DNA of 64,000 bases from Candidatus Cloacimonadales bacterium (GTDB lineage Bacteria > Cloacimonadota > Cloacimonadia > Cloacimonadales > JAFGVF01): NCBI GenBank assembly GCA_963678315.1, contig OY782781.1, positions 1,710,071 to 1,774,070 of the forward strand, read 5' to 3'. Made by a program: the position numbers and the translations under genes. How positions within the stretch are numbered: position 1 is the first letter of the stretch; every line of letters starts with the position of its first letter. The notes under the pieces were generated by a model. That model made no database searches. It worked only from the letters and a program-made list of their open reading frames with translations, and had not been told where the DNA came from. Positions 40,420 to 57,306 of the stretch are shown in pieces.

Positions 40420-40700
40420 ATGCCAATATTTATGCCGTCCCTTCGGGACTAATACATGTCGCCCTTTCAGGGCTTTTTTTATTTTTTAACTATTACATGG
40501 AGGGCAAGCCTCCATGCTTAGTATATGCCACCCCTTCGGGGTTTTTATGGATAGCATCTCCTCAATTCTCCACTCCTATTTCCTAACTCCTCACTCCTAA
40601 CTCCTCACTCCTCACTCCTCACTTCTAACTCCTAACTTACGCCCCTCCTTGAAAAATCGGCTTTTTTTCAAGGTGGCAAGTAAGGGTGTAGAGACCTCGA
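40420..40700. repeat. Repeat cluster R5 (hairpin words, heptamer array and a long hairpin)
   Basis: Words gtcccttcgggac, gccctttcagggc+T-run, ggagggcaagcctcc and ccccttcgggg+T-run. Then the (CCTMACT)n array. Then cttacgcccctccttgaaaaa-tcggct-ttttttcaaggtggcaagtaaggg, which recurs inverted at 55575-55640. Confidence 0.85.
40582..40637. repeat. Tandem heptamer array (CCT[C/A]ACT) x8; reverse strand reads AGT[G/T]AGG, i.e. SD-like AGGAG every 7 nt
   Basis: Eight contiguous 7-bp units were counted base by base, with degenerate units from 40568. The inverted homologous locus (55638-55663) has only about 3 units. Confidence 0.9.
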
Positions 40701-40707
40701 AAACATA

Positions 40708-40749
40708 TAAAAAAAATAACCGATACTCAAGATTGAAATATCGGTTATT
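40708..40749 (-). terminator. Rho-independent terminator of the minus-strand vWA gene
   Basis: On the minus strand: ATAACCGATA, loop, TATCGGTTAT, followed by T8 (plus-strand coordinates 40716-40748 with the A-run at 40709-40716). Confidence 0.8.
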
Positions 40750-40765
40750 AATATTTAGTTCATAT

Positions 40766-43700
40766 TTATTCTAGTGACAAGTATTTGTCAGCTTTAATCA
40801 ATGTTATCTTTTTCTTGATTCTGCTACTATCTGTAGTTTCAGTAGAAGCTTTAATATAAAAGAATTTCATTTCTTCTGTTGCTGGATGTAGCCAAGTAAC
40901 CCTGTTTCCTGAAGTACTAAATTGGAATCTATCATTTGAGACAAGTGTATATTCTCCATCAGGACTATCACAAGCATATATCAAATAGCTTTGAGCATTT
41001 TCTACTACATCGAAAGATAGAATTATGTCTGAATTATTCACTTGCATGTTAACATTCTCTGGTATAGAAAGTTCAATAATTGGCATTTCTACAACATTTA
41101 ATGTAATAGGTATCAAATAATTCGGTTCATCCAAATCATTAGATTCAATACAAACATCAGCTTGATAACTAGCTATTTCTAAGTTGTAACTTCTAAAATC
41201 TAATTCTACTGTTTGGTCTAAAGATGGTTGTAAAATACCGCAGTTTATGTTCGGTCTAACCCAACTGAGAGCATTATTATATACTTTTACATCATCTATG
41301 AACCAACCTGGGAAATTATTATTGAAGTTATCTTGTGTGTAGAAAGTGAAACGAATTTGAACTGTTTCCCCAACATACTCACTAATATTATAACAAGATT
41401 GAATCCAACCTCCTGAGTTACCTGCTGGAGTACCTGCAGAAACAGAAAGATAGTTTCCTCTAAGTTCTTGCCAGTTATAACCATCATTAGTTATTGCTAC
41501 AGCACATCTGTCATAATTTGTTTCAGTAATATAGTTTTCCTGGAATTCAAGATATACATTTTCATTGTTAGCTGGAATTTCTATTTCAGGAGTGATTAGT
41601 GCATTATGAACAAGCTGTCCATTGTTATATGAATATGTATCAGGAACACTGCAGGACCATGCATGGTTATCACTATTGTAAGTCTCATCTTGTAGATGCC
41701 ATAAATCACTTCCAGCATAGTTAACAGTTTCCCAGTCTGATATTTCACCTTCCATATCATCAAAGAAAATTGTATATCTAGAATTATCTCTGTTTTCAGA
41801 ATCTTGCATTAGAGCTTCTTGACTAGTCTTGTTTATTCTTGGAAGAACATTGCTAGAGTATCTTTTAGAATTTGCTAATACATTGCTTTTTCTTGGTCTA
41901 TTTGCATTATTATATGTATTTCTATTATTAATAACTTTGACATTATATTCTAAGTCTGCATCTCCAATATTCTCGAAAGATATAGAACTAGAATCATTTT
42001 GATCAGGATAGAGAGTCATAGTAATTCCTTCAGATGTAGAGTGAATATCTGGATTACCTTCAACGTCTTCAACTAGGATATAATTATCTTTTGTACAAAC
42101 ATCATAACCATTATCATTTGTAACTTTTAGTTTTACATTATAGTAACCAGGTTGCTCATAAGAGTGAATAGGATTTTGTTGATAGCTAACACTACCGTCA
42201 CCAAAGCTCCATTTCCATTGATTACAAGTCCTAAGTTGATTACTTTCTATGTCTGCTTCATGACTGTTTCTTGTATCATTAGGTTCTGACTGACTAATGC
42301 TGTTTACAGGAATAAATTCTTGCATGTAGCCATTGAAATTACCAATATGCCAATAACCACCTAGCTCAGTAGATGTAAGTGTAACTTCATCAATCAACAC
42401 ATCTGCACGATATATCTTAGCTTGTAAATTCAAGACTTCTGATATTTCTTGGTCATTTAAAAATGATTGAGCATAGAACATGTAAGTTGTATTCATAAAT
42501 TGATTTAAAACAATGGTTCTTTCATGAATATTCATACTTGATTGATAATATGCGTAAGGTAAAGAGTCATCACTACCCCATAAGCCATCAAATTGATCTA
42601 CGTAGTACATTTCATTACCAATATTGGCTTTCATCATTAAACCAATAAATTCATCAGAATCCCAAGAAAGTTTAACTATCAAATCACCTGTTGGAGGCAT
42701 ATCATCGAGATAGAAATTCATGGAGTTTACGTTATTTTCATGTATGCTAACATTACTAGAATAATAATCAATATAATCGTCAGCATGAGCAGTCACTGTG
42801 TATTTGTTATCGTATGATAAATCAGTAAAATGAATATCCAATGGGTTCATACCACTAAACTGATCGGCAGTAAAGTTGGCGTGAATCTCTGATAAAGGGA
42901 TATCTAATATTTCATAGAAACCTAATGAATCTGTTGTAGTTGTTAAATTACCTACAGATACTTGAGCATTAACAATAGGCTGGTTATCTTCAAGAGATTT
43001 AACATATCCTTGTAAGATTGTAGTTTCCATAACCTGAATTAAAATCGGTTGGTCAGGAGAGCCATAGTGTGATGAAACGTTGAAGTTATCAGTAGCCTTG
43101 ATATAGTATTCTGTTCCACCCATGTTGTTAGATGCGATATGTATATTTCCTGTATAAAGATTACCACTAACCAATGTCATCTCTTCTTCTTGGAAAAGGA
43201 GTTCACCTTGAGCTCTGTGATAAAGTGATACGCTTGTGATATAGTTGGTAGTATCAATTACACTAGCATTCACCGTGACATCAGTGTTTAATCCAGCACT
43301 CTGGATTGGGATGTGAGATATTACAGGGGCTACATTTGGTAATATAGCTATTTGGAAAGGATTTGAGTTTGGCTCAACAGCAGGTAGAGAAGATGTACTT
43401 TGACCATCAGTTGCAGTAAAGTAATAGTCTAGCCCTGGACTTAATACTGCAGTGTAAGGAATTTCAGCTTGCCATATATTCCCACCAATATTAGTTAAGT
43501 TTATTGTTGAATAATAGCTTTCAGAACTGTTTTTATAATATAGTTTAGCACTTTGGGTAAATGGTTCTATGGAGTCTTCTATTAGAGCTTCTATCATAAA
43601 AGTACTTTCTTCAGCCCAAGCTTGATTATGGTAAGCAAGAGTGTTTCCTGTTCTAGTGATATCGGGAGATGTTCCAGGAGTATAAGAAGCAGTAGCAGTG

Positions 43701-45115
43701 TCAATAGCTCCTAGATAATTTGCTGTTATATCAACTATTCTTTCAAGTCCATTAAAAGCAATATCACTTGATCTATAACGTACGACGTATGTGTTAGATA
43801 CTTGTGATGAAATGGCAGTTAATATATCATCAAATGGAGAATAAATATCCATATATTCACCATTGGTTTGTTCAGAAATATACCCATAATCCTGAATTGA
43901 ACCGGAATCTGTAGAGATTAATGAAAAAGTAGTAATTGTGCTATTGTTTAGTATAGTCAGAGCTTCTTGTTGACTATAATGTCCCTGATTGCTATATTGA
44001 CAGTTTTCATCAGTGATAAGGATAAAGATTTTTTGTGAACCAGGTCTAAAACTAAATTGTGTTGCAGAATCATAAAGAGCGTCCCATCCTGGCTCAAAGC
44101 CTCCACTGGTATGGTTTCTTGTCCATATACTGTTCTTGAAATAATCAGTATCAGAAGTAAGAAGTCCATTTTCTTCAATTATAGGATAACCGCTGTTTTC
44201 TCCACCGAATCTACATAATCCTAGGGCACAATCAACACCTGTAGCGTTCAACTGGTCTATGAAATCACTGACGTTATTTGAAACAGCATTCTGTTCGTCA
44301 GACATACTTCCGCTATTGTCCATTAAAAACACAATATCAGCCAATCTAGAAGAACCACCAGAAGCAGGAGGAACCACTTCATAAAAGTCTTCTTGTAAAA
44401 CACCGTTTTCATATACAGAAAAATCGGAAGAAGATAGTGATGATATTCCAACTCCTGAACTATCAACAGCTACATTCATATAGATGAATGGGAAGTTTTG
44501 TGAGTTAAGACTTGTAATATTCACACTGAGAGAATCTCTATCTACTCTAGATACAGTTACATCTTCAATAGTCCATCCCTCGAATTCAATAGAATCATCA
44601 ATTTGGTATTCAAACATTAATCTCATGCTTGTGTGATTGTTATTTTTAGCATGAACAGTCGTTGTTCTCGTTGATGATTTACCAGAAACTTGGGCAATAG
44701 TTTGCCAATTGTCTTTGTTGTCGAATGATACTTTAACAAAGCCTTTATCATATTCTGACTCTATCTCAAAAGATTCTATATAGTCTATTTTTAACAAGTC
44801 ACAATTTGAGATGTCGATCATTGGTGAAATAAGCTGGGATTTTAATTGCTTAACTTGAGTGTTTTTGGATGTGCTAAATGAACTAATACTCTTGATATCA
44901 GTATCGTCTTGTTGCCAAGAACCATTTGATTTCCATCCACTTTTATTTGTAAGATTGTTAATTAAAACTTTGCAATTATCACTTTTGTTGCTATTCTTTA
45001 TTCCAGATTTGATACTGTGAGCTTGTAATAATTGACCTTTCTCTATTGCTAAATCGTTAGCAAAAACACTGAACATTGTAAAAACAAAAACTAATAATAC
45101 TGTAATAAACTTCAT
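40766..45115 (-). CDS. Giant secreted protein (about 1449 aa) with vWA domain, two choice-of-anchor-J/MAM-like domains, PKD domain and C-terminal FN3-like module
   Basis: The preferred start is ATG 45115 (MKFITVLLVFVFTMFSVFA signal peptide, RBS AGAGG). vWA MIDAS motif DIVFLMDNSGSMSDEQ. GWTIEDVTVSRV and GWFIDDVKVYNN ends of anchor-J-like domains. PKD-like WKWSFGDGSVS..YNVKLKVTNDNG. No Por_Secre_tail. Confidence 0.85.
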   Translation of the reverse strand: MKFITVLLVFVFTMFSVFANDLAIEKGQLLQAHSIKSGIKNSNKSDNCKVLINNLTNKSGWKSNGSWQQDDTDIKSISSFSTSKNTQVKQLKSQLISPMIDISNCDLLKIDYIESFEIESEYDKGFVKVSFDNKDNWQTIAQVSGKSSTRTTTVHAKNNNHTSMRLMFEYQIDDSIEFEGWTIEDVTVSRVDRDSLSVNITSLNSQNFPFIYMNVAVDSSGVGISSLSSSDFSVYENGVLQEDFYEVVPPASGGSSRLADIVFLMDNSGSMSDEQNAVSNNVSDFIDQLNATGVDCALGLCRFGGENSGYPIIEENGLLTSDTDYFKNSIWTRNHTSGGFEPGWDALYDSATQFSFRPGSQKIFILITDENCQYSNQGHYSQQEALTILNNSTITTFSLISTDSGSIQDYGYISEQTNGEYMDIYSPFDDILTAISSQVSNTYVVRYRSSDIAFNGLERIVDITANYLGAIDTATASYTPGTSPDITRTGNTLAYHNQAWAEESTFMIEALIEDSIEPFTQSAKLYYKNSSESYYSTINLTNIGGNIWQAEIPYTAVLSPGLDYYFTATDGQSTSSLPAVEPNSNPFQIAILPNVAPVISHIPIQSAGLNTDVTVNASVIDTTNYITSVSLYHRAQGELLFQEEEMTLVSGNLYTGNIHIASNNMGGTEYYIKATDNFNVSSHYGSPDQPILIQVMETTILQGYVKSLEDNQPIVNAQVSVGNLTTTTDSLGFYEILDIPLSEIHANFTADQFSGMNPLDIHFTDLSYDNKYTVTAHADDYIDYYSSNVSIHENNVNSMNFYLDDMPPTGDLIVKLSWDSDEFIGLMMKANIGNEMYYVDQFDGLWGSDDSLPYAYYQSSMNIHERTIVLNQFMNTTYMFYAQSFLNDQEISEVLNLQAKIYRADVLIDEVTLTSTELGGYWHIGNFNGYMQEFIPVNSISQSEPNDTRNSHEADIESNQLRTCNQWKWSFGDGSVSYQQNPIHSYEQPGYYNVKLKVTNDNGYDVCTKDNYILVEDVEGNPDIHSTSEGITMTLYPDQNDSSSISFENIGDADLEYNVKVINNRNTYNNANRPRKSNVLANSKRYSSNVLPRINKTSQEALMQDSENRDNSRYTIFFDDMEGEISDWETVNYAGSDLWHLQDETYNSDNHAWSCSVPDTYSYNNGQLVHNALITPEIEIPANNENVYLEFQENYITETNYDRCAVAITNDGYNWQELRGNYLSVSAGTPAGNSGGWIQSCYNISEYVGETVQIRFTFYTQDNFNNNFPGWFIDDVKVYNNALSWVRPNINCGILQPSLDQTVELDFRSYNLEIASYQADVCIESNDLDEPNYLIPITLNVVEMPIIELSIPENVNMQVNNSDIILSFDVVENAQSYLIYACDSPDGEYTLVSNDRFQFSTSGNRVTWLHPATEEMKFFYIKASTETTDSSRIKKKITLIKADKYLSLE

Positions 45116-45282
45116 TATAACCTCTTTTCTCCATTTTATCTTTAACATATTTATTTAACAGTAGTTAACCTAACCAGTACCAAACTATTATGTGTTTTTT
45201 TCTTAATCTTGTCTAGTGTTTTTTTTACTATTATAGAATAGAGTTATAAGAAATAAATAATTGATTATAATCACAATTTAAA

Positions 45283-45311: not shown

Positions 45312-45329
45312 ATGAGTTGATAGAACTAT

Positions 45330-48300
45330 ATGTATATTGCAAAGAACAAAGGAATAGCCATGAAAAAGGAAAATTTGAGTAAATTATCAGCATACGTACC
45401 AAGGATTATTGAGAAGATTATTAGCGATAATAACTTATGTGAGCTTCCAGCTTACTTTGAAAGTTTGCAAAATGCAGGAATTATATTCTTTGATATAAGC
45501 GGATTTACCTCTATTACCGAAAGAGTTACATCTGAAGGCTACTATGGAGTAGAAGTTATAACAAATATTTTAAACTCATATTTCGATATAATGGTTCCTT
45601 TGATTCATAAAAACGGTGGTTCGATAGTTAAGTTTAGTGGAGATGCTTTTCTAGCTATGTTCCCACTTGAGAAGACAAGATTCTTTACTAGAATGACTGC
45701 CTATAAAGAGGAGGTTGCACAATGCTTATCAGAGTTAAATAAGCAATTCCAGGATCTGTATAATTTTGAGATATCCATACATGGTGGCTATTCTTATGGT
45801 CAAGTAAAAGTACAGTTAGTTTCAAATCGAAAGCAAATATATGATTATATCGTGATAGGAAATGCAGTCTCTGAAGCCTATGAATTATGTAATCAAGCAC
45901 AGACAGGGGAAATTCTAGGAAATGAAATAGTAGATGTTGATGTTTTTGAACAGAATAGGCCTAGCTTATTGGAACTTACAGAAGTCAGATCTTCATTAAT
46001 TGAGTCTTTTATTACAAAAGAAGTTGGATCAAAGCTTACTGAAGCATTGTTTGAGGCTGAATTACGCTTTTGTTCAATTTTGTTTGTTGGTATAGTTCCT
46101 ATAAGCAACGAGTTCTTCACAGTTGAACAGTTGCAAAGATGCTACCAAGCTGTCAGTGATGTTGTAGCTACAACTGGAGGAATGATCAATAAAATTGATT
46201 ATACTGATAAGGGCTATATGCTAATAATTACTTATGGGCAGTTAGTCATCTATGATGATCAAATCATGCGTGCAGTGAAATGTGCACAAGAACTTACCAA
46301 GATTGAAGATAAAGATTTTTATTTCAAGATTGGATTCACTACAGGGTCAATATATTCTGGAAAGATTGGTTCGAATATTAGGGCTGAATTTGGAATCATT
46401 GGTAATGCAATAAACATTTCTGCTCGTTTAATGAGTTTGTGCAAAGCAAATGAAGTTACATTCTCACAACAGATTTTATCCTCTATCCGCAAATATACAA
46501 GTTATAATTTCATTGGTAAACAGAAACTAAAAGGTATAAAAGATGATATAGAAGTATATAAATTATCAGTCGGAAAGAATGTAACTAAGAGTTTATACGA
46601 TAATAGATATAAAGATGTTAAATATGTTGAAATATATGAACAACTTAACTTCGCTAATATTGATAAAATTAATAAAGTGACAGCTATATATGGTGATTCT
46701 GGTATGGGGAAATCTTTATCCATATATAAAATCCTTGATAACTTAGATTCTAATGAATTTTTCCTTAGTGAACTATATGAGTTTAACAAATATAAAATCT
46801 ATGGTTTTATTGAATCCTTGCTATCTTCAATAATTGGAATTATATCTATGAGGTTACAGTATGAAGATATATATAAATTTGCTGAGGATAATAATATTGT
46901 TATAGATAGAACGCTTCTGCAAAATGTTTTCTTAAATGAGAATGCAAATCTATCAGAAGCTGAGATGGAGATTGTTGATAATTTCTTTGTTGAAGTAATT
47001 TACATCTATATTAGCCAATACAAATTTCTTCTTATTGATAACTTTGATTATATTGATAGTAAGTCCAAAATCATTGTTGAAAGACTTATTAAAAAACTAA
47101 CTAACAGCGATATCAAAATAATCTTAACAAGTCATTCTAAATTGTCATCTGAGATAATTGCAAGCTCACTTATAGAAAATATTGAACTAACTTCTCTTGA
47201 TGATAATAAATCAGAGTCATATATAAGAAGTCAAATTCCTAACATATCTGATGGTGCTGTGGCAAGGTTAGCTAAAATAGCAAATGGAAATATTCTTAAT
47301 CTTACTGAATTATGTAACCAAATATTATCTGTTAAGCAGGGAAGCTTGCAGATAATTAATAATGATAATTTGAATATGATGTTTAAAGAAGGTAAGGTAG
47401 CTAACTCTATTGAAAGTTATTATCTTAGGTCTTATGATAAGTTAAATGAGGAGATGAAAACTATCTTGAAGATTGCATCGATAATTGGAAGCATGTTTCA
47501 ATTTGAGTTTGTGCAAAACCTATCTTCCCAAGTTGTGAATAAACTAGATGAAGACTTGTTAGAACATCTCTGCCAAGGACAATATCTAAGACTTCATTCT
47601 AAGAATCCAGAGAGCTTTTATGTATTCAAGAATCAGCTCTTTCATCAGGCGGTCTATAAAACTATTCCTTTAAATGAAAAGATTAAATATCATAAATCAA
47701 TAGCCCAATACTTAGAATCAAAATATGAAGATTCTTTAAAAGACTATTATGAAATTATAGCACAACATTTCTATTTCTCAAAGAATAAAGATAAAACTGC
47801 TAAATATGCCTTATTAGCTGCAGAAAAGAGCTTAAGTTTATGCTTATATAATCAATGTTATTATTTCTGTAAAATGGTTATATCTTCCAAACAAGATAAT
47901 GCTGTATTGGCTAAAATAATAGCTATCGAAGTTCTAACACTTGTAAAAAGAAAAGATTTAGCTAAGCAGTATATTGATGAAATCTCTGATCTTGTGACAG
48001 GTGAGTTAATCTGTAGGTATTATTATGCTCAAGCATTGTACTATTTTAGCAATTCTGATTACTCCAAGGTCCTTTCTTTATCTCTTGATCGAAGTTTTTG
48101 TAATGAATTCTATTTTATTCGAACTCAGTTGTTTGTTCTTGATAGTTATCGTTTTCTAAATAGAAAAGTGGATTTCACACGACTAGTTAAAAATATTGAA
48201 AAAGTCTTAACTAAAGATAGTCTTTTGCTTGTCCAATTAAAAAATATCTATGCACAATACTATATAGATACTTCTCAGTTTGAACTTTCTTTAATAACAT

Positions 48301-49115
48301 ACTGTCAAGCAATTGAAGTATCACAGAATATAAACAATAAATTCAATGAGAAGATAGCATCAATAGGGGCCGGCGTTGCCTGTATGAACATGGGTAAACT
48401 ATCAAAAGCAAAGACTTATTTATTTAAGGCTAAGGAGATTGCACAGAATATTGGAGATATAACAGGTTTGAACAGGATATTATTAGAGCTTGCTATTATT
48501 GAACGTAAGGAAGGCAATAAAGATAAAGCTCTAGCTACATATCAGGAAATCTATGTCTCTGCTATGGATGAAGGTGATTTACAGCATGCTTCTACTATAT
48601 TATATAATATAGCCGAGTACTATTATTCCAATGAAGACAATGATTCAGCCTTAGAATATCTATCAAAAGCTCTCAAAATCCAAGAACGTATCAATGATAA
48701 AGCAAGTATTTGCTATAGCTATGACATGATGGGGGATATATATTTCTCTAATGGAGACTTAGAAAAAGCAGAATCTATCTATTCACAGAATATTAATAGG
48801 CAAAAAGAAGTTGGAGATAATGTAGGGCTTGCTCACAGTAATATGAATCTTGCCAACATCCTACTTTCTCGTAAAGAATTTGATAAGTCTTTACCACTAT
48901 ATTTAGAGCAAATTAGAATTCTTGAAAGCTTGAAAGATGTAGAAGGTCAAGGTAAGGCAAACTATAATGTTGGGGTCAACTTTTATTATCTAAAGGATTT
49001 AGATAATTGTATAAAGCATCTAAGGTTAGCAGAAGAGAAATTCATTGAATGTAATAATAAAGATCTTCTTGCATCTGTGCAAGCTTTATTAGGGAAACTT
49101 GTTCCTAAATCATAA
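45330..49115 (+). CDS. Multidomain signalling protein: two class III nucleotidyl cyclase homology domains, P-loop STAND/AAA NTPase and TPR array
   Basis: CHD1 has FFDISGFT and KFSGDAF. CHD2 has GIIGNAINISARLMS. Walker A is IYGDSGMGKS. The C-terminal third is TPR-like (repeated ..A..Y..AL.I....GD..G...). The start may be ATG 45360 (AAGGA RBS). Confidence 0.85.
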   Translation: MYIAKNKGIAMKKENLSKLSAYVPRIIEKIISDNNLCELPAYFESLQNAGIIFFDISGFTSITERVTSEGYYGVEVITNILNSYFDIMVPLIHKNGGSIVKFSGDAFLAMFPLEKTRFFTRMTAYKEEVAQCLSELNKQFQDLYNFEISIHGGYSYGQVKVQLVSNRKQIYDYIVIGNAVSEAYELCNQAQTGEILGNEIVDVDVFEQNRPSLLELTEVRSSLIESFITKEVGSKLTEALFEAELRFCSILFVGIVPISNEFFTVEQLQRCYQAVSDVVATTGGMINKIDYTDKGYMLIITYGQLVIYDDQIMRAVKCAQELTKIEDKDFYFKIGFTTGSIYSGKIGSNIRAEFGIIGNAINISARLMSLCKANEVTFSQQILSSIRKYTSYNFIGKQKLKGIKDDIEVYKLSVGKNVTKSLYDNRYKDVKYVEIYEQLNFANIDKINKVTAIYGDSGMGKSLSIYKILDNLDSNEFFLSELYEFNKYKIYGFIESLLSSIIGIISMRLQYEDIYKFAEDNNIVIDRTLLQNVFLNENANLSEAEMEIVDNFFVEVIYIYISQYKFLLIDNFDYIDSKSKIIVERLIKKLTNSDIKIILTSHSKLSSEIIASSLIENIELTSLDDNKSESYIRSQIPNISDGAVARLAKIANGNILNLTELCNQILSVKQGSLQIINNDNLNMMFKEGKVANSIESYYLRSYDKLNEEMKTILKIASIIGSMFQFEFVQNLSSQVVNKLDEDLLEHLCQGQYLRLHSKNPESFYVFKNQLFHQAVYKTIPLNEKIKYHKSIAQYLESKYEDSLKDYYEIIAQHFYFSKNKDKTAKYALLAAEKSLSLCLYNQCYYFCKMVISSKQDNAVLAKIIAIEVLTLVKRKDLAKQYIDEISDLVTGELICRYYYAQALYYFSNSDYSKVLSLSLDRSFCNEFYFIRTQLFVLDSYRFLNRKVDFTRLVKNIEKVLTKDSLLLVQLKNIYAQYYIDTSQFELSLITYCQAIEVSQNINNKFNEKIASIGAGVACMNMGKLSKAKTYLFKAKEIAQNIGDITGLNRILLELAIIERKEGNKDKALATYQEIYVSAMDEGDLQHASTILYNIAEYYYSNEDNDSALEYLSKALKIQERINDKASICYSYDMMGDIYFSNGDLEKAESIYSQNINRQKEVGDNVGLAHSNMNLANILLSRKEFDKSLPLYLEQIRILESLKDVEGQGKANYNVGVNFYYLKDLDNCIKHLRLAEEKFIECNNKDLLASVQALLGKLVPKS

Positions 49116-49132
49116 CTAAAATGAGGTTAAAT

Positions 49133-49543
49133 ATGAAAATAAAACTAGTAAATACAGTTGTTCATGCTGAGAATTTTGAATTAGTTAAGAATTGGTATGT
49201 AAAAACCTTTGATTTGAGCGTAACTGAATATCCAGAAGAAGCAGGGAACTATGTTGACTTATCTTCAGAGGGGCAAGACATTGTTGGAATTGCTCAAAAT
49301 GATAATAAGAATCATCCTTTACCATCACCTAGAAGCAATGGGCAATATCTGCAAATATCTTGTTCACATATATTTACTATATTTGAAAGAGTTAAAGCTA
49401 ATGGTGGTAGTGTTACTTGGGGACCAGAACGTGGTAATGGTTATTGGTGTGGGGAAGTACTTGATATAGAAGGTAATCAGATATGGTTATTCACTCCTGA
49501 TTCAGATTTAGTAGAAAAAGTCCCCGATCGATATAAAAGTTAA
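49133..49543 (+). CDS. VOC/glyoxalase-family small protein
   Basis: About 136 aa. The pattern VVHAENFELVKNWYVKTFDL...GYWCGEVLDIEGNQIWLF is typical of the glyoxalase/bleomycin-resistance fold. The track start 49121 is less likely than ATG 49133. Confidence 0.65.
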   Translation: MKIKLVNTVVHAENFELVKNWYVKTFDLSVTEYPEEAGNYVDLSSEGQDIVGIAQNDNKNHPLPSPRSNGQYLQISCSHIFTIFERVKANGGSVTWGPERGNGYWCGEVLDIEGNQIWLFTPDSDLVEKVPDRYKS

Positions 49544-49557: not shown

Positions 49558-49597
49558 ATAAAAAGTACCGATGTTATTTAACACCGGTACTTTTGTT
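49558..49597. terminator. Bidirectional intrinsic terminator between convergent genes
   Basis: AAAAGTACCGATGTT (49561-75), loop, AACACCGGTACTTTT (49580-94), with an A-run on one side and a T-run on the other. Confidence 0.8.
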
Positions 49598-49611
49598 ATT
49601 CTATGTTTTAT

Positions 49612-52600
49612 TTATTTTTTAGATCTTCTTTCAAAGGGTTCAATATATCTTCTATAGTCTTTGATATTATCATAGCTTCTATAAGATTTTCTCTTTATAG
49701 CTTTACTCTGAGATAAGTTCTTCTTGCTAGCATTTACAGTATGTCTTGTAGGAACATATTTCACTTTATAGAATCTTAAATCATCTGTTGATACAATATT
49801 GAACCATAAATCACTACTTGATCCTATTTGCTCATAGTCTGATAAGTTGTGGCTCTCATATATTTGGTAAGTCACATTACGACTTTCAACATCTTCTGGT
49901 TGTTGCCAGCTAATATGTACCTGATTATTTCTTTCAGTAATATCAAGATCATTTATCCATTTAGCTGTACCTGCCTCTTCTTCTTCTTCTTCAGTATGAA
50001 TAATGTCTAGACCTTGAATGTCAACATGACTTTCATAATTTCCAAGAGAGAAATGTAATCTTAGATCAACATTATATCCTGCATATTCATTAAATTTCAC
50101 AATTAGTTTTGGTGAGTTTGGACTACTAAAATCTACATATAATGTGTCAAAGCCTAAGCCCATGTTAGACAATGCTTGTTGGTCATAGCAATCTATTTCA
50201 TATAGATTAATTAGTGTATCTTCAGGCATATAGTATTCACCATAGATGGTAAAATAATTTAGCATCAAAGGTGGTTCATCAATACCACTCCAACCCCAAG
50301 AAGCCTGATCTACCCATTCAAAGTTGTATTGAGTTTCAATAACTACTTCTTTACCAATCTCTAATTGCGGATAAAGTAGTTCATCTGTATCATTGTCATC
50401 ATCAATATCGTTGAAATCTTGTAAAGTTTGATACTCATAATACCAGCTTGTTCCATGCTGATATTCAAAATTAAAGCCTTCAACTATGTAAGATGAATAA
50501 TAACCATCATAGTAGTAGTCTGTCTCTTCAACATTTTTTAACATTCCATGCCATTCAATATTATGGTGTTTTGCACCAATTCCCAAGCCTGTTATTCCTG
50601 TGCTTGGATCTGGTGTATAATCATGATTATTGGTGTCTATGAACATAGGATTATCATAGATATTTGAATATCCATAAATGCCAGTTTCACCAGAATTAAT
50701 CAATGAATAGTTGATTGAAATTTCTTGATTTTCTCCAATGAATGGTGCTTCAGAATATTCTTCACTCCAAAAAATAGACCTATGAGCATATATTTGAGAG
50801 TTATCTAGAATTCCGAATGTTTGATAATTAGAAAAAGTAGACTCATATATACTAATAGTACTATTGTTTGTTAAATCAAGTGGAATATAGCCTTCATCAA
50901 TATCGTAATCATCATAGAATATAGAGCCCCACATTTCAGCAATACTATTATTAAGAGCAATTGAAGTGTTACAATAAGCATAAGTACAATAACTTAAATC
51001 ATCACCATATCCCTCTGAAATGCTAACAGCTTCCTGTAGTTGATTATAACTATTATATCTTAAGTTACTATAAGCTCCTATTGTATTAATTCCTATACCA
51101 GGGTTATTAGGTCCTCTACCGTTTATGACAGTATTTTCAACCCTAATTTCAACATCAGAGAGATAGATTGCTTGGCTGTGAATAGCAGTATGATATCCAT
51201 TAATTACACAATTATCTATATATGTGTCTGATATATCATATAAGCCAAATCCGATTGAGGATTCTGAGTCTTCTGCAAAATAGCTTAGTCTTAAACCCCA
51301 GAAATTAGCTTGATTGACAAATTCAATTCCACTTGAATTATAACTTATTCCCTTAGGATAGTTGGAAATAGCACCTGTTTGAACATTCAAAAGTACATTT
51401 CCTAAGCCATGAATACCAATTTCATCATAGTCTGGGAAGTCGTAAGAACGATTTAAATTAATGTTACTTATGTCCGCTGATGTTTGAATTTCTGTATTCT
51501 GATTAATGATATTGATAGCTGTTTTTGTAGAATCTATATCAATATAATCCATGGTTACATTATATAGACCATAGAGAACAATACCACTACTAGAATTTTC
51601 ATAATTGTTTCTAATTGTAATATTGTTGAAGGTCGGTTCAGAAACAAGAGTGAAATCGTTTCCTGTTTCAAAATAGATACCATTGGTAAAACCTCTAATC
51701 TCCATATCTTCTAATGTTGGAGATGCTGGACAGTCAAATCTAATACCAGCATTATCAGTTCTTGAAGAGTTAGAAGAATTTTTAACTCTAACACCTGTCA
51801 TCAATGGAGCTATCAAATCTTCATTATCATCAAGGAATTCATTAAAATAGATACCATAATCATAACCTTCAATATCAATATCATCTATTTCAGGAGAGCA
51901 CTTGTAATCAACAAAAATACCATATTGACCACCACGTGAAGAGTTAGAAGAATTTTTTACTCTAACACCTGTCATTAGTGGGATTAACTCCTGAGTATCA
52001 TCATAAGTTCCATGATTATTCTTTAACTCAATACCTATATCATAATCTTCAATATCAACATTATTAATTTGCGGTGCAGATGCATAACCAACTGCTATAC
52101 CTCGGGAAGTAGTACGTGAAGAATTAGAAGAATTCTTAACTCTAACACCTGTCATTAAAGGAATATCTAGGCCTTCATCATCTAAGAAAGAACCATTGTT
52201 ATCTATATCAATACCAGTTGAGAAACCTTCAATATTTATGTTTTCTATTTCAACTTTATAAGAACCCAGAGCTTTAATTCCTGTTCTTTCATTTCTAGTT
52301 TCTTCTGTGTTTATTAGGTTTGTGTCTCTAATTTTAACTTGATTAGATTGTAGTTCAGATTCATTACTTAGAACAATACCTTGTTCTACATTGATTAAGG
52401 AATCTGCAGCAATTTCTATATTCCTAACATTAGCAACTTTAATACCAATTCTATCAGTACGTGATGAGTTTGAAGAATTTTTAACTCTAACACCAGTCAT
52501 CAATGTTAAATCTAAACCATCATTATCATCTAATTCAATACCTATATCGTAGCCTGATATGTCTATACCATTAGTTGAAATTTGAGTATTGCTTACTTTC

Positions 52601-55296
52601 AGACCTGAACTTGAAGCACCACCATCAGCTTTACTTAGCTTTACATTATTAAGAGTTACATTAGAACGGTTTCTTGTATTATCTGTAGAAGTTAATTCAA
52701 TACCGCCAGCAAAATTGTTAAACTCTGAATTGTTTATAATTATATCAGAATCTTCTACATAAAGACCTTTACCAGAGTTTAAACTATCTTGACTGCTTAA
52801 CTTAATATGGTCCAGTGAACTAATATTACGAGTTCTACTTTCAGATCCAATAATTCTAATACCTTCATTATATCCAGCTATCTCCAATGAATCTATTGTA
52901 ATAGCACCGTTATTAATAACTTGAATTGCGTATCGTTCACCTTCTTCTTGATTAACTCTAGATATCATACAATGAGACAAGTTTAGTTCTGCATGGTCAA
53001 CAATAATTGCTGTTGAAGCATCTTCGAAAGAACAATCTTCAAGCATACTTTCTCTTTGGTCATTTGAGAAATACATGCCTTCCCAGCCATTTCCATTAGA
53101 TCTGAAATTAACATTCTGAGCCTCAACAGTTCCCTCAATATTTAAACTAGCCCCCTCTGAAAGAATAACTTCAGCTCCTGCTTGAATGACAAGAGTTGAA
53201 TCTTCGTCAATAGTATGATTTTGTGTAATAGCAATTGAGCCCTGCCAGTTGTTTGACTCAGGGTTTTCTTTAGGAACAACATTTACTATAATAGAAGATG
53301 TTGATTGATACATTTGATTTGCTACAGTTAAATCAACTTGATATTGACCTTGGAACATAAATGTATAAGCTGGATTCTCTTCGAAAGATATTTCACCTGC
53401 AAGGTTCCATTGAGATGAAGTATATACACCAGTAGAAGCATTTACAAATTGTATCTCTGTACCTGCTTCAACATCTAATGTTATATCTAGGTTACTTACT
53501 TCGATAATACTTTGTACTTCTCCAAATGTAGAAATATAATCTGTCATAACTAAAGTGTTAGTTTCATCATAAGCATTGGTAACTGTTAATGATACACTAT
53601 AATGTGACGAAGTTTCATAACTATAAGAAGGATTTTGTTCATAGGAATCTATATTTCCATCATTATCAAAATCCCACTCCCATGATATAGGGTCTCCACC
53701 AGATAAGTCAGTAAATTGCACCATCTCTCCAATTTCTGGACTTTGATTATTAACTGTGAAATTTGCTATGAGTTGATCTATCACAACTACTTGTCGTGTA
53801 TATATAGATTCTCTGTTATTGTCTGTATCTCTAACAGTTAAAGTGACGGTATAATCTCCTACCTCACTAAACTGATACATAGGGTTAGTAGCATTAGAAT
53901 CTATTATCCCATCACTATTAAAATCCCACATAAACATAATATTGTCATTAATTGAGAAAACATCTGTTCCACTTAAAGCTTCAAATTGAGTGTTATTAAC
54001 CAAGTATATTGGTTCTATATCTAATGAAATTCTTGCTGAAACCCATGGTAAATATGGCATAGCCCCATCGATTAACCAGATATCATTAAAATTAAATCCA
54101 TAATTACTATAAGTTATTTGGTCTGTAGATTCAAAAATATCCATTTGCTGAACATTTGAATTTCCAGATTGATTGAAGCCCATACCTAATTCATTATTAA
54201 CATAATCTGGGTCTGTGTTTAAATATAGAACATTTTCTATTGTAGAATCTCCTCCATTAAAACCAGCAAACAAACCGACATTAGTGTATCCTGTAACATT
54301 TCCTGTAGAATAACAATGCTCTATATTAGCATTATTACTGTTTGAAGCAACAAAACCACCACTGTTTATTCCAGAAGCATTGACATTACCAGTTGCATAG
54401 CAGTTTTCTATATTTCCACCATTATTCTCACCAACAAAGCCACCTATTCTACTATTACCAGTGACGTCTCCTTCTGCATAACTGTTTATTATTGCTCCAT
54501 CATTTTTACCAATAAGTCCACCAACATAATCGTAACCATTGATATTTCCTGAGCTTGAACAGTTTTGAATTGTTGAATTATGAACTGATTCACCTGTAAT
54601 TCCACCAATGAAATAATACAGACCTGTTACATCTGACATTGAAGAACAGTTTGATATAGATGAATTATACCATAATGCACCGGCAATACCACCTACTTTC
54701 TTATAATCACCATTGATTGTAGCATTACTTGTTGATAAGTATATTTCAGAATTATGTGAAACTAAACCAGTAATTCCACCTAAAAGTTGAGAATGTGCTA
54801 CTATATTTCCAGTTACAGAACACCCTTCAATACAAGCATATTCAGTTATAAGCCCAGCTACAGCACCAACTGCACTTTGTCCATTTATATCAACATTTTC
54901 TAACTCAAGATTTCGAATCTTTCCACCTAAAACATAACCAAACAAACCTATATTGCTATGATTTGGTCTGTTTATAAATAGATTTGTAATCTTGTAACCG
55001 TTACCATTGTAGTTACCAGAGAATTTATTCGAATCATAGTTGTTGTAATTATCACCAATTGGTTTAAATCCCATTCCATTATTTAAAGCCAATGATGCAG
55101 ATGCATCAATATCATTAACTTGGATAAAATAGCTATTCCAACAGGCTTGATTGTTACTAATCCAAACTAAATTGTCTAAGCTTTCTACCTGATAAGGTGC
55201 TTCAGATGTACCTTCACCACTTTGTGGCATTACACCTTGAGCAAAAAAAGTTAATGTAAAACATATGACAAATAACATTAACAAATTTCTTTTCAT
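49612..55296 (-). CDS. Giant secreted protein (1894 aa): N-terminal GLUG-motif repeats, three PKD domains, long parallel beta-helix with near-identical internal repeats, C-terminal FN3-like module and basic tail
   Basis: Signal peptide present. GLUG-type repeats (VGAVAGLI, LGGITGLV, VGGIAGAL, IGGITGES, VGGLIGKN, IGGFVGEN). PKD-like FMWDFNSDG..YTVTLTVRD and WEWDFDNDG..YSVSLTVTN. Four copies of LMTGVRVKNSSNSSR. No Por_Secre_tail. Confidence 0.85.
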   Translation of the reverse strand: MKRNLLMLFVICFTLTFFAQGVMPQSGEGTSEAPYQVESLDNLVWISNNQACWNSYFIQVNDIDASASLALNNGMGFKPIGDNYNNYDSNKFSGNYNGNGYKITNLFINRPNHSNIGLFGYVLGGKIRNLELENVDINGQSAVGAVAGLITEYACIEGCSVTGNIVAHSQLLGGITGLVSHNSEIYLSTSNATINGDYKKVGGIAGALWYNSSISNCSSMSDVTGLYYFIGGITGESVHNSTIQNCSSSGNINGYDYVGGLIGKNDGAIINSYAEGDVTGNSRIGGFVGENNGGNIENCYATGNVNASGINSGGFVASNSNNANIEHCYSTGNVTGYTNVGLFAGFNGGDSTIENVLYLNTDPDYVNNELGMGFNQSGNSNVQQMDIFESTDQITYSNYGFNFNDIWLIDGAMPYLPWVSARISLDIEPIYLVNNTQFEALSGTDVFSINDNIMFMWDFNSDGIIDSNATNPMYQFSEVGDYTVTLTVRDTDNNRESIYTRQVVVIDQLIANFTVNNQSPEIGEMVQFTDLSGGDPISWEWDFDNDGNIDSYEQNPSYSYETSSHYSVSLTVTNAYDETNTLVMTDYISTFGEVQSIIEVSNLDITLDVEAGTEIQFVNASTGVYTSSQWNLAGEISFEENPAYTFMFQGQYQVDLTVANQMYQSTSSIIVNVVPKENPESNNWQGSIAITQNHTIDEDSTLVIQAGAEVILSEGASLNIEGTVEAQNVNFRSNGNGWEGMYFSNDQRESMLEDCSFEDASTAIIVDHAELNLSHCMISRVNQEEGERYAIQVINNGAITIDSLEIAGYNEGIRIIGSESRTRNISSLDHIKLSSQDSLNSGKGLYVEDSDIIINNSEFNNFAGGIELTSTDNTRNRSNVTLNNVKLSKADGGASSSGLKVSNTQISTNGIDISGYDIGIELDDNDGLDLTLMTGVRVKNSSNSSRTDRIGIKVANVRNIEIAADSLINVEQGIVLSNESELQSNQVKIRDTNLINTEETRNERTGIKALGSYKVEIENINIEGFSTGIDIDNNGSFLDDEGLDIPLMTGVRVKNSSNSSRTTSRGIAVGYASAPQINNVDIEDYDIGIELKNNHGTYDDTQELIPLMTGVRVKNSSNSSRGGQYGIFVDYKCSPEIDDIDIEGYDYGIYFNEFLDDNEDLIAPLMTGVRVKNSSNSSRTDNAGIRFDCPASPTLEDMEIRGFTNGIYFETGNDFTLVSEPTFNNITIRNNYENSSSGIVLYGLYNVTMDYIDIDSTKTAINIINQNTEIQTSADISNINLNRSYDFPDYDEIGIHGLGNVLLNVQTGAISNYPKGISYNSSGIEFVNQANFWGLRLSYFAEDSESSIGFGLYDISDTYIDNCVINGYHTAIHSQAIYLSDVEIRVENTVINGRGPNNPGIGINTIGAYSNLRYNSYNQLQEAVSISEGYGDDLSYCTYAYCNTSIALNNSIAEMWGSIFYDDYDIDEGYIPLDLTNNSTISIYESTFSNYQTFGILDNSQIYAHRSIFWSEEYSEAPFIGENQEISINYSLINSGETGIYGYSNIYDNPMFIDTNNHDYTPDPSTGITGLGIGAKHHNIEWHGMLKNVEETDYYYDGYYSSYIVEGFNFEYQHGTSWYYEYQTLQDFNDIDDDNDTDELLYPQLEIGKEVVIETQYNFEWVDQASWGWSGIDEPPLMLNYFTIYGEYYMPEDTLINLYEIDCYDQQALSNMGLGFDTLYVDFSSPNSPKLIVKFNEYAGYNVDLRLHFSLGNYESHVDIQGLDIIHTEEEEEEAGTAKWINDLDITERNNQVHISWQQPEDVESRNVTYQIYESHNLSDYEQIGSSSDLWFNIVSTDDLRFYKVKYVPTRHTVNASKKNLSQSKAIKRKSYRSYDNIKDYRRYIEPFERRSKK
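51750..52510 (-). repeat. Four intragenic repeats encoding (P)LMTGVRVKNSSNSSR, conserved at nucleotide level
   Basis: Roughly 45-nt cores at about 51761, 51934, 52114 and 52459 (plus-strand c(g/t)tga(a/t)ga(g/a)tt(a/t)gaagaatt(c/t)tt(a/t)actctaacacc(t/a)gtcat). The flanking repeat sequence has diverged. Confidence 0.85.
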
Positions 55297-55574
55297 AATT
55301 ATACTCCTTGATTATAATTCATTATTAACGATCAAAACACAATACTAATTATCTACTAAATAATAAAATAGGCAATCTTTTTTTTAATAAATATTTCTTA
55401 ACTAAGGTCCTTTCTTTACACATTAAGTTTTTAAGAATTACTGCGAAATCTGATAAAAGGAGCTTATGTACTAATAATAGTCATCATTAACAATTTAGCA
55501 TTTATGATTTATCTGATATAAAATGAGTTTTCTTTCAGCAAAGATATGACTTTTTGACTGTAATTTATATTAGT

Positions 55575-56262
55575 GGTAAGGTCGTGCTTACTGGCCTCTT
55601 TGAAAAAAAGCCGATTTTTCAATGAGGCAAGTAAGGGAGGAGTTAGGAGTGAGTTTAGGAGTGTAAGCATCCACCGAAGGTTGAAGGAACTTCATGCTTA
55701 CGCAAACTATAGAGACGAACGAATGTTCGTCTAAATCAAAAATGAAGGAAGAGAGTTGAGATGAGATCCATTTTATCACCCATGGTTAAACCATGGGCTC
55801 TTTATTGATTTACCCTTACAGGGTATAAATACCTTTATGTCCCTTGGGGACATCTCACCACAAAGCCCATGATTTCAATCGTGGGTGATGTTAGAAGTTA
55901 GGACATACTGGTACCGCCTGCCTCTTTTAGGGGTGGTTTCAATCGTCTTAGCCGATTACGGTCCCTTCTGAATGCGCATCTTTAAACATGCTTGCATGGT
56001 TAAAGAGAAAAAACTTATCTTTTGGAGTGCATTCATCCCTGAATGCGCATCTTTAAACATGCTTGCATGGTTAAAGAGAAGATACTTTAACATCATTCTT
56101 GATGAATGATGTTTCGCAAGCAAGGACTGTGACAGGCGAAGACTGTTGCTGGCAAGCCAAAGTGAATTTGTAGAGACGTTCTGCAAAAGGTCTCAAACGT
56201 AATCTACAGTCTTTACTGTCACAGTACTATTTTTGTAAAAGCTAATGCATCATCTGGGATAA
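55575..56262. repeat. Repeat cluster R6 (inverted orientation relative to R1-R3 and R5)
   Basis: Contains reverse complements of the long ccttgaaaaa/tttttcaagg-type hairpin, a short heptamer array, the gcgtaagcat/atgcttac module, cccatggttaaaccatggg, tacccttacagggta, gtcccttggggac, cccatgatttcaatcgtggg and the atgcgcat/catgcttgcatg module (duplicated). It ends with a solo MITE end (56221-56258). Confidence 0.9.
55968..56079. repeat. 41-bp direct repeat x2 (period 71 bp) inside R6
   Basis: ctgaatgcgcatctttaaacatgcttgcatggttaaagaga occurs at 55968-56008 and 56039-56079. Each copy contains the nested hairpin tctttaa-a-catg-cttg-catg-g-ttaaaga. Confidence 0.9.
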
Positions 56263-57304: not shown

Positions 57305-57306
57305 AA

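Follow-up and report, generated by a model that had tools for sequence, protein, structure and literature searches.

The interval at 40.4-56.3 kb of the window, by which we mean the whole 64-kb stretch of DNA analysed, is most probably ordinary, vertically inherited chromosome of a low-G+C bacterium, itself probably a member of the Cloacimonadota, lying between two mosaic repeat clusters, R5 and R6, whose bracketing of it is coincidental (probability about 0.72). Each cluster holds one copy of a dispersed composite module of ~130 nt, the two in opposite orientations. The modules may have multiplied as miniature elements, whether selfish or neutral, or through gene conversion among clusters, and with about one copy per 20 kb, in either orientation, an inverted pair 15 kb apart would be expected by chance. 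The four genes in between would be native, comprising two lineage-specific secreted giants, a soluble-adenylyl-cyclase-type sensor and a small VOC protein. Because the evidence points to coincidence, we attach no significance to the interval as an island or as an invertible switch. The features discussed below are as follows.

39588..40334, + strand: gpmA (2,3-bisphosphoglycerate-dependent phosphoglycerate mutase), left flank; NF010713, 435 bits, full length
40363..40388, + strand: terminator-type hairpin and T-run just after gpmA; inverted repeat I2, 13-nt arms, 92% complementary, then TTTTTT
40431..40543, + strand: left part of R5, four small G+C-rich hairpins forming two-hairpin units that resemble the Acido-Lenti-1 motif; direct-repeat family D2, fold z = -3.97
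40572..40637, + strand: R5 heptamer array ACTCCTM; Tandem Repeats Finder (period 7, 9.4 copies) and pattern search
40636..40684, + strand: R5 long hairpin, 21-nt arms and 7-nt loop, core of the module shared with R6; inverted repeat I1, DNA fold -11.6 kcal/mol, z = -3.5
40715..40749, - strand: intrinsic-terminator-like hairpin of the vWA gene; terminator scan, 14-pair stem then T-run
40766..45148, - strand: secreted giant of 1460 aa with VWA, CarboxypepD_reg, PKD and InhA-like MAM domains; Pfam, hydrophobic N-terminal signal-like segment
45330..49115, + strand: cyclase of 1261 aa with C1 (~45-200), C2 (~245-410), P-loop NTPase and TPR (~980-1240); Pfam, NCBIfam and structure matches
49121..49543, + strand: VOC/glyoxalase-fold protein of 140 aa; PF00903, 21.6 bits against a cut-off of 20.6 (borderline)
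49562..49600, no strand assigned: terminator-like hairpin where the convergent VOC and GLUG genes meet, shared by both; sequence AAAAAGTACCGATG...CACCGGTACTTTT
49612..55296, - strand: secreted giant of 1894 aa with M26_N/GLUG N-terminus, PKD domains and a repetitive region (~700-1400); Pfam
55587..55660, - strand: R6 copy of the composite module, long hairpin (55587-55635) then ~3 degenerate heptamers; DNA fold -14.4 kcal/mol, z = -5.3
55661..56263, no strand assigned: remaining R6 mosaic, with small hairpins (55708-55891) and modules common to other clusters; self-blast and repeat finder
56384..57304, + strand: RnfD/NqrB-family gene of 306 aa, right flank; TIGR01946, 244 bits against a cut-off of 207, nqrB models below their cut-offs

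The first-pass annotation had placed the four genes between gpmA and nqrB. The identity of gpmA was confirmed; the gene on the other side passes the cut-off for rnfD only, and it heads an rnfD-rnfG-nqrD-nqrE-nqrF-like operon in which no nqrA was found. The domain labels given to the four genes held for VWA, the cyclase pair, TPR, GLUG and PKD, with VOC borderline, and a beta-helix assignment found no backing in Pfam. Residues 700-1894 of the GLUG giant had no Pfam match, though the region is internally repetitive. The species is represented by just one further genome, L081, in which the vWA giant has an orthologue of 98.6% identity; full-length orthologues of the GLUG giant were found only in these two genomes. 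The VOC gene starts 5 nt past the cyclase stop codon and, judged from this spacing, is probably co-transcribed with the cyclase.

Alignment by blastn bore out the proposal that R5 and R6 carry a common module, heptamer array plus 49-nt hairpin, in opposite orientations. Positions 40618-40684 of R5 (+) align to 55653-55587 of R6 (-) over 67 nt at 85% identity (E 1e-12), and the window contains just two exact copies of the 23-nt core TTGAAAAATCGGCTTTTTTTCAA, one on each strand, while 100 shuffles contain none. That the two copies are truly inverted follows from the asymmetric loop (TCGGCT versus AGCCGA) and from the side that carries the heptamers. The folds of the long hairpins score z = -3.5 to -5.4. 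The ACTCCTM heptamers are unequal, with 9.4 copies in R5 (40572-40637) and only ~3 degenerate copies in R6 (55636-55660). In full, the composite module spans ~130 nt in the order small G+C-rich hairpin, GATCCCAGTA, heptamer array and 49-nt hairpin. Self-blastn detected no other similarity between R5 and R6 inside the window beyond this module; further R6 modules recur in the clusters at 1-377, 2015-2236, 6296-7428 and 14854-15431. R6 also holds a 49-nt repeat in two copies, 71 nt apart, within 55968-56087, and its small hairpins at 55708-55891 have an inverted counterpart in the R5 of the sister strain.

The composite module is a multi-copy dispersed repeat. Repeat modules fill seven of the eight intergenic spacers of the window longer than 250 nt and are shared between clusters. 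At an unrelated locus of the same species group (L129, 12.5 kb), the sole extra locus obtained by sampling through IS1182, module copies lie at 576-713 (-) and 10225-10379 (+) and bracket 9.6 kb of unrelated genes (IS1182, AhpC, TetR and RND). The hairpins of that pair point outwards, not inwards, hence there is no fixed architecture. Four copies in 76 kb, with one sampled locus picked through an IS element, give a genome-wide copy-number estimate of ~100 or more. The caveat of the first-pass annotation that the bracketing might be coincidental is thus supported by the dispersal of the module and by this second inverted pair. The clusters occupy sites where they do little damage: R5 is enclosed by two convergent terminators, as given by the hairpin after gpmA and the vWA-gene terminator at 40715..40749 (-), and R6 lies between divergent promoters and gene starts. 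A metagenome scan with the 19-nt hairpin core returned 39 matches, all of them unrelated chance matches lacking the module, so that the module was unseen outside the species. By blastn, the window clusters share no sequence similarity with clusters at other Cloacimonadota loci, and the likeness is one of style. In the Cloacimonadales relative L005, for example, arrays of heptamers (unit CAATTAG) and double hairpins flank gpmA on both sides. An Rfam search of R6 gave nothing credible.

The clusters change fast, through gain and loss of whole modules and shifts in heptamer copy number. The strain comparison covers the two genomes of the species, which are ~99% identical and agree in gene content, order and orientation across the interval. 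R5 measures 431 nt in the window versus 1089 nt in L081, and R6 1087 nt versus 762 nt, the differences being insertions or deletions of entire modules; the R5 heptamer array has ~4.5 copies in L081 versus 9.4 in the window. The R5 of L081 further shares a colinear composite of ~330 nt with the R6 of the window, and from this length we infer that both clusters stem from one inverted duplication rather than from two independent 130-nt insertions. This point speaks against the preferred reading, since a rearrangement in the past, or an event involving a composite element, would fit it too.

Turning to the genes themselves, the cyclase is, by its domain content, a full-length soluble-adenylyl-cyclase-type protein predicted to combine C1-C2, P-loop NTPase and TPR. 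Its true start is probably 45360 (1251 aa), on the basis of the protein P0001, which has that length. The best solved-structure matches are to human ADCY10, with both domains aligned to C1/C2 (E 1e-24), and the catalytic residues are conserved: Asp in FFDISGF and in KFSGDA, Lys in DKGY, and Asn and Arg in NISAR. A Walker A motif (GDSGMGKS) lies at 455-462, the NTPase region matches TIGR03903 at 562-849, and TPR_12 and TPR_MalT match at 1007-1204. At the bicarbonate site the equivalent of Lys95 is kept and that of Arg176 is Tyr; we take the roles of these two residues to be those seen in ADCY10 structures. Anti-phage defence of the Pycsar/Avs type was considered and rejected, PADLOC giving only generic PycC cyclase-domain and TPR matches (best E 1e-16), and no match in the three neighbouring genes.

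The earlier suggestion that the cyclase regulates the giants retains some support. In such a scheme, which is independent of the repeats and which we regard as possible but unlikely, the cyclase (with the VOC protein) and the neighbouring giants would work together; for instance, a cytoplasmic cue sensed by the NTPase/TPR part could trigger cAMP synthesis, and the cAMP could in turn control the production or handling of the giants. The cyclase family has roughly 300 full-length members. In favour of the scheme, three of eight independent neighbourhoods of cyclase homologues have an adjoining giant PKD protein with a homologous repetitive region, and in a fourth other giants adjoin. Two other lineages have homologues with giants as immediate neighbours, namely L124/L125 (27% identity; a Cloacimonetes genome with a G+C content of 58%) and L128 (28% identity in tblastn), and the three giant-adjoining cyclases sit on separate deep branches of the family tree. 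The L124 and L128 giants (2154 aa and 1614 aa) are mutually homologous (35% over 745 aa, E 2e-125) and both match the GLUG giant in its repetitive, non-PKD region (E-values of 6e-38 and 1e-26). One gene further in L124 is an M26_N/GLUG protein 41-43% identical to the GLUG N-terminus. The repetitive region was absent from the other giants tested, namely three further ones from the window, two from L126 and one from L128. The catalytic residues of the cyclase are kept, as described above.

The adjacency nevertheless gives a weak lead for a functional link. The neighbourhoods in L082, L083 and L123 have a different conserved set instead (radical SAM, a ~1089-aa protein and a TPR protein), and in L127 a two-component system lies upstream of the cyclase with no adjoining giant. 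Relative orientation differs each time (convergent, convergent, same strand). Giants make up ~8-9% of the window genes, so that chance adjacency is fairly likely, and a rough binomial test gives p ~0.03 for four of eight. The vWA giant has only the PKD domain in common with any neighbour, no cAMP-receptor gene or binding site was found, and a search upstream of the two giants for a shared regulatory site gave nothing convincing. An exhaustive protein search with GLUG residues 500-1400 returned 21,982 matches, was swamped by PKD, and gave no usable frequency estimate for the repetitive region. We consider it doubtful, and somewhat less probable than the link itself, that there is an old, recurrent partnership in Cloacimonadota and related lineages of soluble-adenylyl-cyclase-type sensors with giant PKD/repetitive-region proteins, in which the cyclase-VOC operon would be dedicated to cAMP control of the GLUG giant, and perhaps of the vWA giant as well. 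If true, this would be a cAMP counterpart of c-di-GMP control over giant adhesins, which is known in proteobacteria.

The first-pass annotation had also raised the possibility of an accessory or exchangeable island, a claim not sustained by our data. Such an island, a 15-kb segment imported or movable as a unit between two inverted miniature elements of ~330 nt, much as certain segments are mobilised by a pair of miniature inverted-repeat elements around them, is in our judgment very unlikely. The segment is indeed bounded by inverted copies whose ancestral arms were at least 330 nt long, and close orthologues of the giants and of this cyclase paralogue are confined to the species; on sequence grounds, the absence of full-length orthologues of the giants elsewhere would also fit accessory status. 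Its composition is native, however, with a GC3 of 0.213 in the interval versus 0.212 in the background, a codon-use correlation of r = 0.94 (background range 0.80-0.96), a tetranucleotide correlation of r = 0.96, and a flat GC profile over the interval (0.30-0.36 throughout). No integrase, transposase or recombinase was found by Pfam and NCBIfam in the four genes and no tRNA in the 64-kb window, and the border repeats are inverted, not direct. Colinearity with L081 also argues against an island, as does the flank-like divergence: 1.39% inside the interval, compared with flanking values of 1.2% and 0.68%, and without any step at either cluster. The arms share only 85% identity and decay differently between strains, and the outward-facing pair in L129 shows no fixed architecture.

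The comparison with related genomes proposed earlier showed neither inversion nor absence in L081 and was uninformative at the greater distance of L005. The latter came from a gpmA search of the genome collection that returned 80 loci, 79 of them in unrelated phyla because the protein is too conserved. L005 keeps the rid-pduO-gpmA block and has other genes (alpha-2-macroglobulin and PBP1C) downstream of gpmA, as an island would predict; its genes differ on both sides of the block, upstream as well, so the difference is not specific to the segment.

Least probable of all, and hardly credible, is an invertible segment in which recombination of R5 with R6 flips the 15 kb and alters which genes and promoters face each other, for although genuine inverted repeats flank the segment (67 nt at 85% identity with the 23-nt exact core, and up to ~150 nt in the sister strain), the two assemblies agree in orientation, the longest exact identity of ~23 nt is at or below the minimal efficient processing segment required for RecA-dependent exchange in E. 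coli, the arms are not homogenised as frequently recombining repeats become, no invertase or tyrosine recombinase gene lies nearby (no recombinase by Pfam/NCBIfam among the ORFs scanned, at 1-22.8 kb and 34.9-62.9 kb), and R5 lies beyond two terminators, such that a flip would swap promoters in no obvious way.

Coincidental bracketing of native chromosome thus remains the preferred reading, and the interest of the locus lies elsewhere. In this lineage, which probably belongs to the Cloacimonadota, a group known mostly from metagenomes, nearly all long spacers are full of fast-changing mosaics of hairpins and heptamers. These mosaics can serve as strain markers, pose a hazard to assembly and small-RNA calling (Acido-Lenti-1 acts here as a repeat unit), and provide a system for studying the spread of elements without a known transposase. 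As to the cyclase, bacterial full-length homologues of soluble adenylyl cyclase are not known to have assigned partners, and the repeated presence of one class of giant secreted proteins beside them offers a testable lead.

The repeat is a lineage-specific member of a known repeat type. With hairpin arrays in seven of the eight long spacers and modules shared among them, the short palindrome clusters of the window resemble REP/BIME repeats. A candidate REP-transposase, a 64-codon ORF (MGHTLVKNYHHFVFSTKKG...) in the R5 of L081 with a seeming likeness to the N-terminus of IS200/RAYT proteins, was set aside, having neither Pfam nor tblastn support. REP/BIME elements are found in enterobacteria and pseudomonads (PMC2817692, PMC3733652), and REP palindromes bear a GTAG or CGTC tag at one end (PMC3733652). 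Like them, the window repeats are short imperfect palindromes, intergenic only, mixed with other motifs into mosaic clusters, frequently downstream of a gene or between a convergent pair, variable from strain to strain, and targets or neighbours of insertion sequences. Unlike them, most window hairpins have no GTAG/CGTC tag: GTAGAGAC occurs three times versus 1.26 expected, no commoner than chance, with a single full GTAGAGAC...GTCTC palindrome at 56170-56194, and the main hairpins are preceded by ATGYC. The two-hairpin units here also run head to tail on one strand, whereas REP orientation alternates, no REP-associated tyrosine transposase was found in the sequences scanned, and heptamer arrays belong to the window clusters.

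Those arrays recall the STRR heptamer sequences, reportedly described by Mazel et al. in 1990 from heterocystous cyanobacteria, in being tandem 7-nt arrays that are intergenic, dispersed and variable in copy number. They differ in phylum and in unit (ACTCCTM here, CAATTAG in L005), and in the window the array and a specific 49-nt hairpin are physically linked into a single module. The two-hairpin unit, for its part, matches the model of Acido-Lenti-1 RNA (RF01687), a candidate small RNA of Acidobacteria and Lentisphaerae (PMC2864571). Against the Rfam gathering threshold of 37 bits there is one match above it, outside R5 and R6 (15078-15124, 40.5 bits), and there are eight weaker ones in the window, two of them in R5 (40438-40474, 26.9 bits; 40496-40543, 20.7 bits). 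In contrast to the described RNA, the unit behaves here as a multi-copy building block of repeat clusters in a probable Cloacimonadota genome, with most copies below threshold.

The interval as a whole resembles site-specific invertible segments and genomic islands in having inverted repeats around a multi-gene block that encodes surface proteins; it differs from them in showing no recombinase, alternative orientation, compositional signature, tRNA or direct-repeat borders, and from islands also in showing no presence/absence polymorphism between the window and L081, a single comparison. A Chloroflexus enzyme is given as a bacterial relative of mammalian soluble adenylyl cyclase in PMC11006738, which cites Kobayashi et al. 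2004. The cyclase of the window has only ~25-30% identity to ADCY10 and its bacterial relatives, and the second residue of its bicarbonate site is Tyr in place of Arg176. Like ADCY10, the window protein carries C1 and C2 in tandem on a single chain, with a P-loop NTPase and TPR-type repeats after them, and it keeps the metal-binding Asp residues, the Lys95 equivalent, the Lys of C2, and the Asn and Arg.

The 15 kb between gpmA and the rnfD-like gene are bounded by two intergenic repeat clusters, R5 on the left and R6 on the right. Positions are those of the window:

39588-40334, + strand: gpmA, the left flank of the interval
R5 spacer, 431 nt, between gpmA and the vWA giant
40766-45148, - strand: VWA/PKD/MAM protein of 1460 aa (vWA giant)
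45330-49115, + strand: protein of 1261 aa with two cyclase domains, an NTPase and TPR repeats (cyclase)
49121-49543, + strand: VOC-fold protein of 140 aa, starting 5 nt past the cyclase gene
49612-55296, - strand: M26_N/GLUG/PKD protein of 1894 aa (GLUG giant)
R6 spacer, 1087 nt, between the GLUG giant and the RnfD/NqrB-family gene
56384-60322, right of R6: operon whose first gene encodes an RnfD/NqrB-family protein of 306 aa

G+C content is uniformly low in the window (0.29-0.38 per kb), and both giants, as we call very large secreted proteins, start with a hydrophobic signal-like segment. The first-pass annotation had placed four genes between gpmA and nqrB; the four genes are present, but the supposed nqrB is RnfD-like, its product lacking the NqrB N-terminus and passing the rnfD cut-off only. 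The operon that it opens is a hybrid, in which RnfD-like and RnfG/NqrC-like genes are followed by NqrD-, NqrE- and NqrF-like genes, with no nqrA, rnfB or rnfC adjoining.

R5 and R6 do have heptamers and a long hairpin in common, in opposite orientations, as had been noticed. Self-comparison of the window aligned 40618-40684 in R5 with 55653-55587 in R6 (67 nt, 85% identical, E 1e-12), and the 23-nt core TTGAAAAATCGGCTTTTTTTCAA was found at just two sites in the 64 kb, one in each cluster (0/100 shuffles). The common piece consists of a 49-nt hairpin with 21-nt arms and the adjacent heptamers; its fold is much more stable than those of shuffled sequences (z = -3.5 to -5.4). The ACTCCTM heptamer array runs to 9.4 copies in R5, against ~3 copies, all degenerate, in R6. 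With a small G+C-rich hairpin these elements form a composite module of ~130 nt. R5 is flanked by the terminator-like hairpins of two convergent genes, and R6 separates the starts of two divergent genes, with promoter DNA free of repeats (278 nt and 120 nt) on its two sides.

A cyclase homologue with 99% identity was found on a 3.0-Mb metagenomic contig (L081) from a second genome of the species. In this one genome of the same species, the segment, for which presence, absence or inversion among relatives had been envisaged, has the same genes in the same order and orientation (gpmA-vWA-cyclase-VOC-GLUG-rnfD). Per kb, the two genomes diverge unevenly (0.2-3.4%) but show no jump at either cluster; the mean is 1.39% within the interval and 1.2% and 0.68% in the flanks. 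The spacers of L081 measure 1089 nt (R5) and 762 nt (R6), and they differ from those of the window by whole modules, the R5 heptamer array having ~4.5 copies there. Because the extra DNA of the L081 R5 contains an inverted copy of window 55708-55891, this spacer is colinear with the R6 of the window over ~330 nt (~85% identity). Given that colinearity, R5 and R6 go back to a single inverted duplication, whose later decay took a different course in each strain.

The strains differ in other details as well. The outer part of one R6 hairpin arm differs at 4/13 positions (L081 20229-20260 vs window 55620-55637) in genomes otherwise ~99% identical, a difference that suggests conversion from another genomic copy; pairing was maintained or improved by the changes. 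A second, tandem FG-GAP secretion-tail paralogue (~77% nucleotide identity) occupies L081 1-552; the corresponding stretch of the window (36278-36581) is a 304-nt spacer that holds a repeat cluster. The L081 R5 also holds a 64-codon ORF (4501-4695, - strand, start MGHTLVKNYHHFVFSTKKG) truncated by a hairpin repeat; its start resembles the N-terminus of IS200/RAYT-type transposases, a likeness supported by neither Pfam nor tblastn.

Two further composite modules were found in L129, a 12.5-kb locus (33% G+C) from another genomic region in a third sample of the same species group, retrieved via a variant of the IS1182 transposase. They lie at 576-713 (-) and 10225-10379 (+), the latter with a variant long hairpin, and are mutually inverted around 9.6 kb with IS1182, AhpC, TetR and RND efflux genes. 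Their hairpins face outwards whereas those of the window pair face inwards, and therefore no fixed "bracket" architecture is seen. Extrapolated roughly from four copies in ~76 kb, a sample that is small and in part biased, a genome would have some 100 copies, so dense that an inverted pair at a distance of 15 kb is nothing unusual. The suspicion that the bracketing is coincidental was thus supported by a dispersed module and a second inverted pair enclosing unrelated genes. Set against R5 and R6, the long hairpin of the L129 copy at 586-650 (compared with window 55587-55660) has a 7-nt loop that is inverted with respect to its heptamer side, which looks like a small loop flip inside a conserved stem. 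A metagenome scan with the hairpin core returned chance matches only, and no sequence similarity was found between the window clusters and those of other loci. In L005, a Cloacimonadales relative, rid-pduO-gpmA is kept (88%, 72% and 78% amino-acid identity), and CAATTAG heptamer arrays and 49-nt double-hairpin arrays lie on both sides of gpmA; cluster style, not sequence, is common to the window and L005. On the strength of L005 and of homologues that their sources label Cloacimonetes, the window probably belongs to Cloacimonadota.

The best solved relatives of the cyclase are structures of human soluble adenylyl cyclase ADCY10, with which both C1 and C2 align (E 1e-24). The metal-binding Asp, the Lys95 equivalent, the C2 Lys and the transition-state-site Asn and Arg are conserved, and Tyr stands at the Arg176 equivalent, these roles being ones that we assume from the ADCY10 structures. 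With a Walker A motif at 455-462 and a C-terminus filled with TPR repeats, the predicted architecture is that of a full-length soluble adenylyl cyclase, already known in bacteria such as Chloroflexus (PMC11006738). PADLOC gave only generic domain matches for this protein. The window's own contig (2,988,751 bp) encodes, outside the window, a second paralogue of this type (P0024, 1242 aa, 29% identical); for the sister genome, no copy of it with at least 90% identity is recorded.

Could the cyclase be a dedicated regulator of the giants beside it, as first proposed? Reading the neighbourhoods of eight independent family members (window and L081 counting as one), we found co-occurrence in four. 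A giant lies on each side of the cyclase in window/L081; L124/L125 have a convergent PKD/LRR giant (2154 aa) and then an M26_N/GLUG protein; in L128 a PKD giant (1614 aa) precedes the cyclase by 86 nt on its strand; and L126 has two giants (2494 and 1372 aa) among the three secreted proteins encoded upstream. The others go without: L127 has a two-component system on the upstream side and, downstream, a gene for a small secreted protein, and L082, L083 and L123 (13.7-19.9 kb) have a conserved trio after the cyclase, comprising a radical SAM gene that overlaps the stop codon of the cyclase gene, then genes for a protein of ~1089 aa that has no annotation and for a TPR protein of ~572 aa. The L124 and L128 giants are homologous (35% over 745 aa, E 2e-125), and each of them aligns with the part of the GLUG giant that is internally repetitive and non-PKD (E 6e-38 and 1e-26), as did none of the other giants tested; in the family tree, the cyclases of the window, L124 and L128 belong to three different deep branches. 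The association is a suggestive but thin, low-probability lead because gene orientation is different in each case, giants are common in such genomes (~8-9% of genes in the window), a rough binomial for 4/8 neighbourhoods gives p ~0.03, and an exhaustive search for the baseline frequency of the repetitive region was swamped by PKD matches.

The proposal of an accessory island was not supported. The interval matches its background in GC3 (0.213 vs 0.212), codon use (r = 0.94, within the background range) and tetranucleotide usage (r = 0.96), contains no integrase, transposase or tRNA, and is bordered by inverted rather than direct repeats. Full-length orthologues of the GLUG giant were confined to the species (its two genomes), every other match covering <=30%; surface proteins that evolve fast commonly show such a distribution, and it is alone no proof of accessory status. 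In L005, the genes 3' of gpmA encode alpha-2-macroglobulin and PBP1C, and Fe-hydrogenases lie 5' of rid-pduO-gpmA, where the window has thyX and an FG-GAP protein; synteny is lost on both sides, and the loss is therefore general at that distance and uninformative on the segment. The 15 kb between R5 and R6 behaves as native chromosome. Inversion by recombination between R5 and R6 is likewise unsupported and, except perhaps as a rare event, unlikely: the segment is oriented alike in the two assemblies, the arms share 85% identity (longest exact identity ~23 nt) and are unhomogenised, and the ORFs scanned (1-22.8 kb and 34.9-62.9 kb) include no recombinase gene near the interval.

Elsewhere in the window, the thyX frame (34913-36277) encodes 454 aa with two ThyX-domain stretches, ~2x the usual length, which suggests internal duplication or fusion, and a full-length 6S RNA gene (21022-21196, 53.8 bits) lies upstream of the RNase Y gene.

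The R5 and R6 repeats are members of a dispersed, fast-evolving, lineage-specific mosaic intergenic family. Self-comparison revealed mosaic clusters at 1-377, 2015-2236, 6296-7428, 14854-15431 and 36430-36584 besides R5 and R6, occupying 7/8 intergenic spacers >250 nt (the apparent last spacer, shown to be coding, is left out); the eighth, 38241-38652, is simply a promoter region rich in A+T. What varies from cluster to cluster is the combination of small G+C-rich hairpins, short-period arrays and longer hairpins. An IS1182-family transposase (433-1893, -) and an IS4-like transposase (13489-14775, +) each lie within a cluster and adjoin a copy of the same 126-nt repeat (41-166 and 14855-14979, respectively); the window's genome has three variants of the IS1182 protein, none at least 90% identical in the sister genome. 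The 1.35-kb spacer between two large secretion-tail protein genes carries a 264-nt unit in 2.7 tandem copies (95% identical, 6309-7017).

One component, a two-hairpin unit with two sub-families, matches Rfam Acido-Lenti-1 (RF01687), whose listed phyla do not include the probable one of the window. One copy (15078-15124) exceeds the gathering threshold and eight weaker ones fall below it, among them those starting at 2033, 6499, 6763, 7193, 15285, 40438 and 40496, two being in R5; all are on the + strand within repeat clusters. In this window the "small RNA" thus has the look of a unit from which repeat clusters are built. Among known kinds of repeat, REP/BIME clusters, cyanobacterial heptamer arrays and the Acido-Lenti-1 motif come closest to the window repeats, most of whose hairpins lack the defining GTAG tag and for which no transposase is known.
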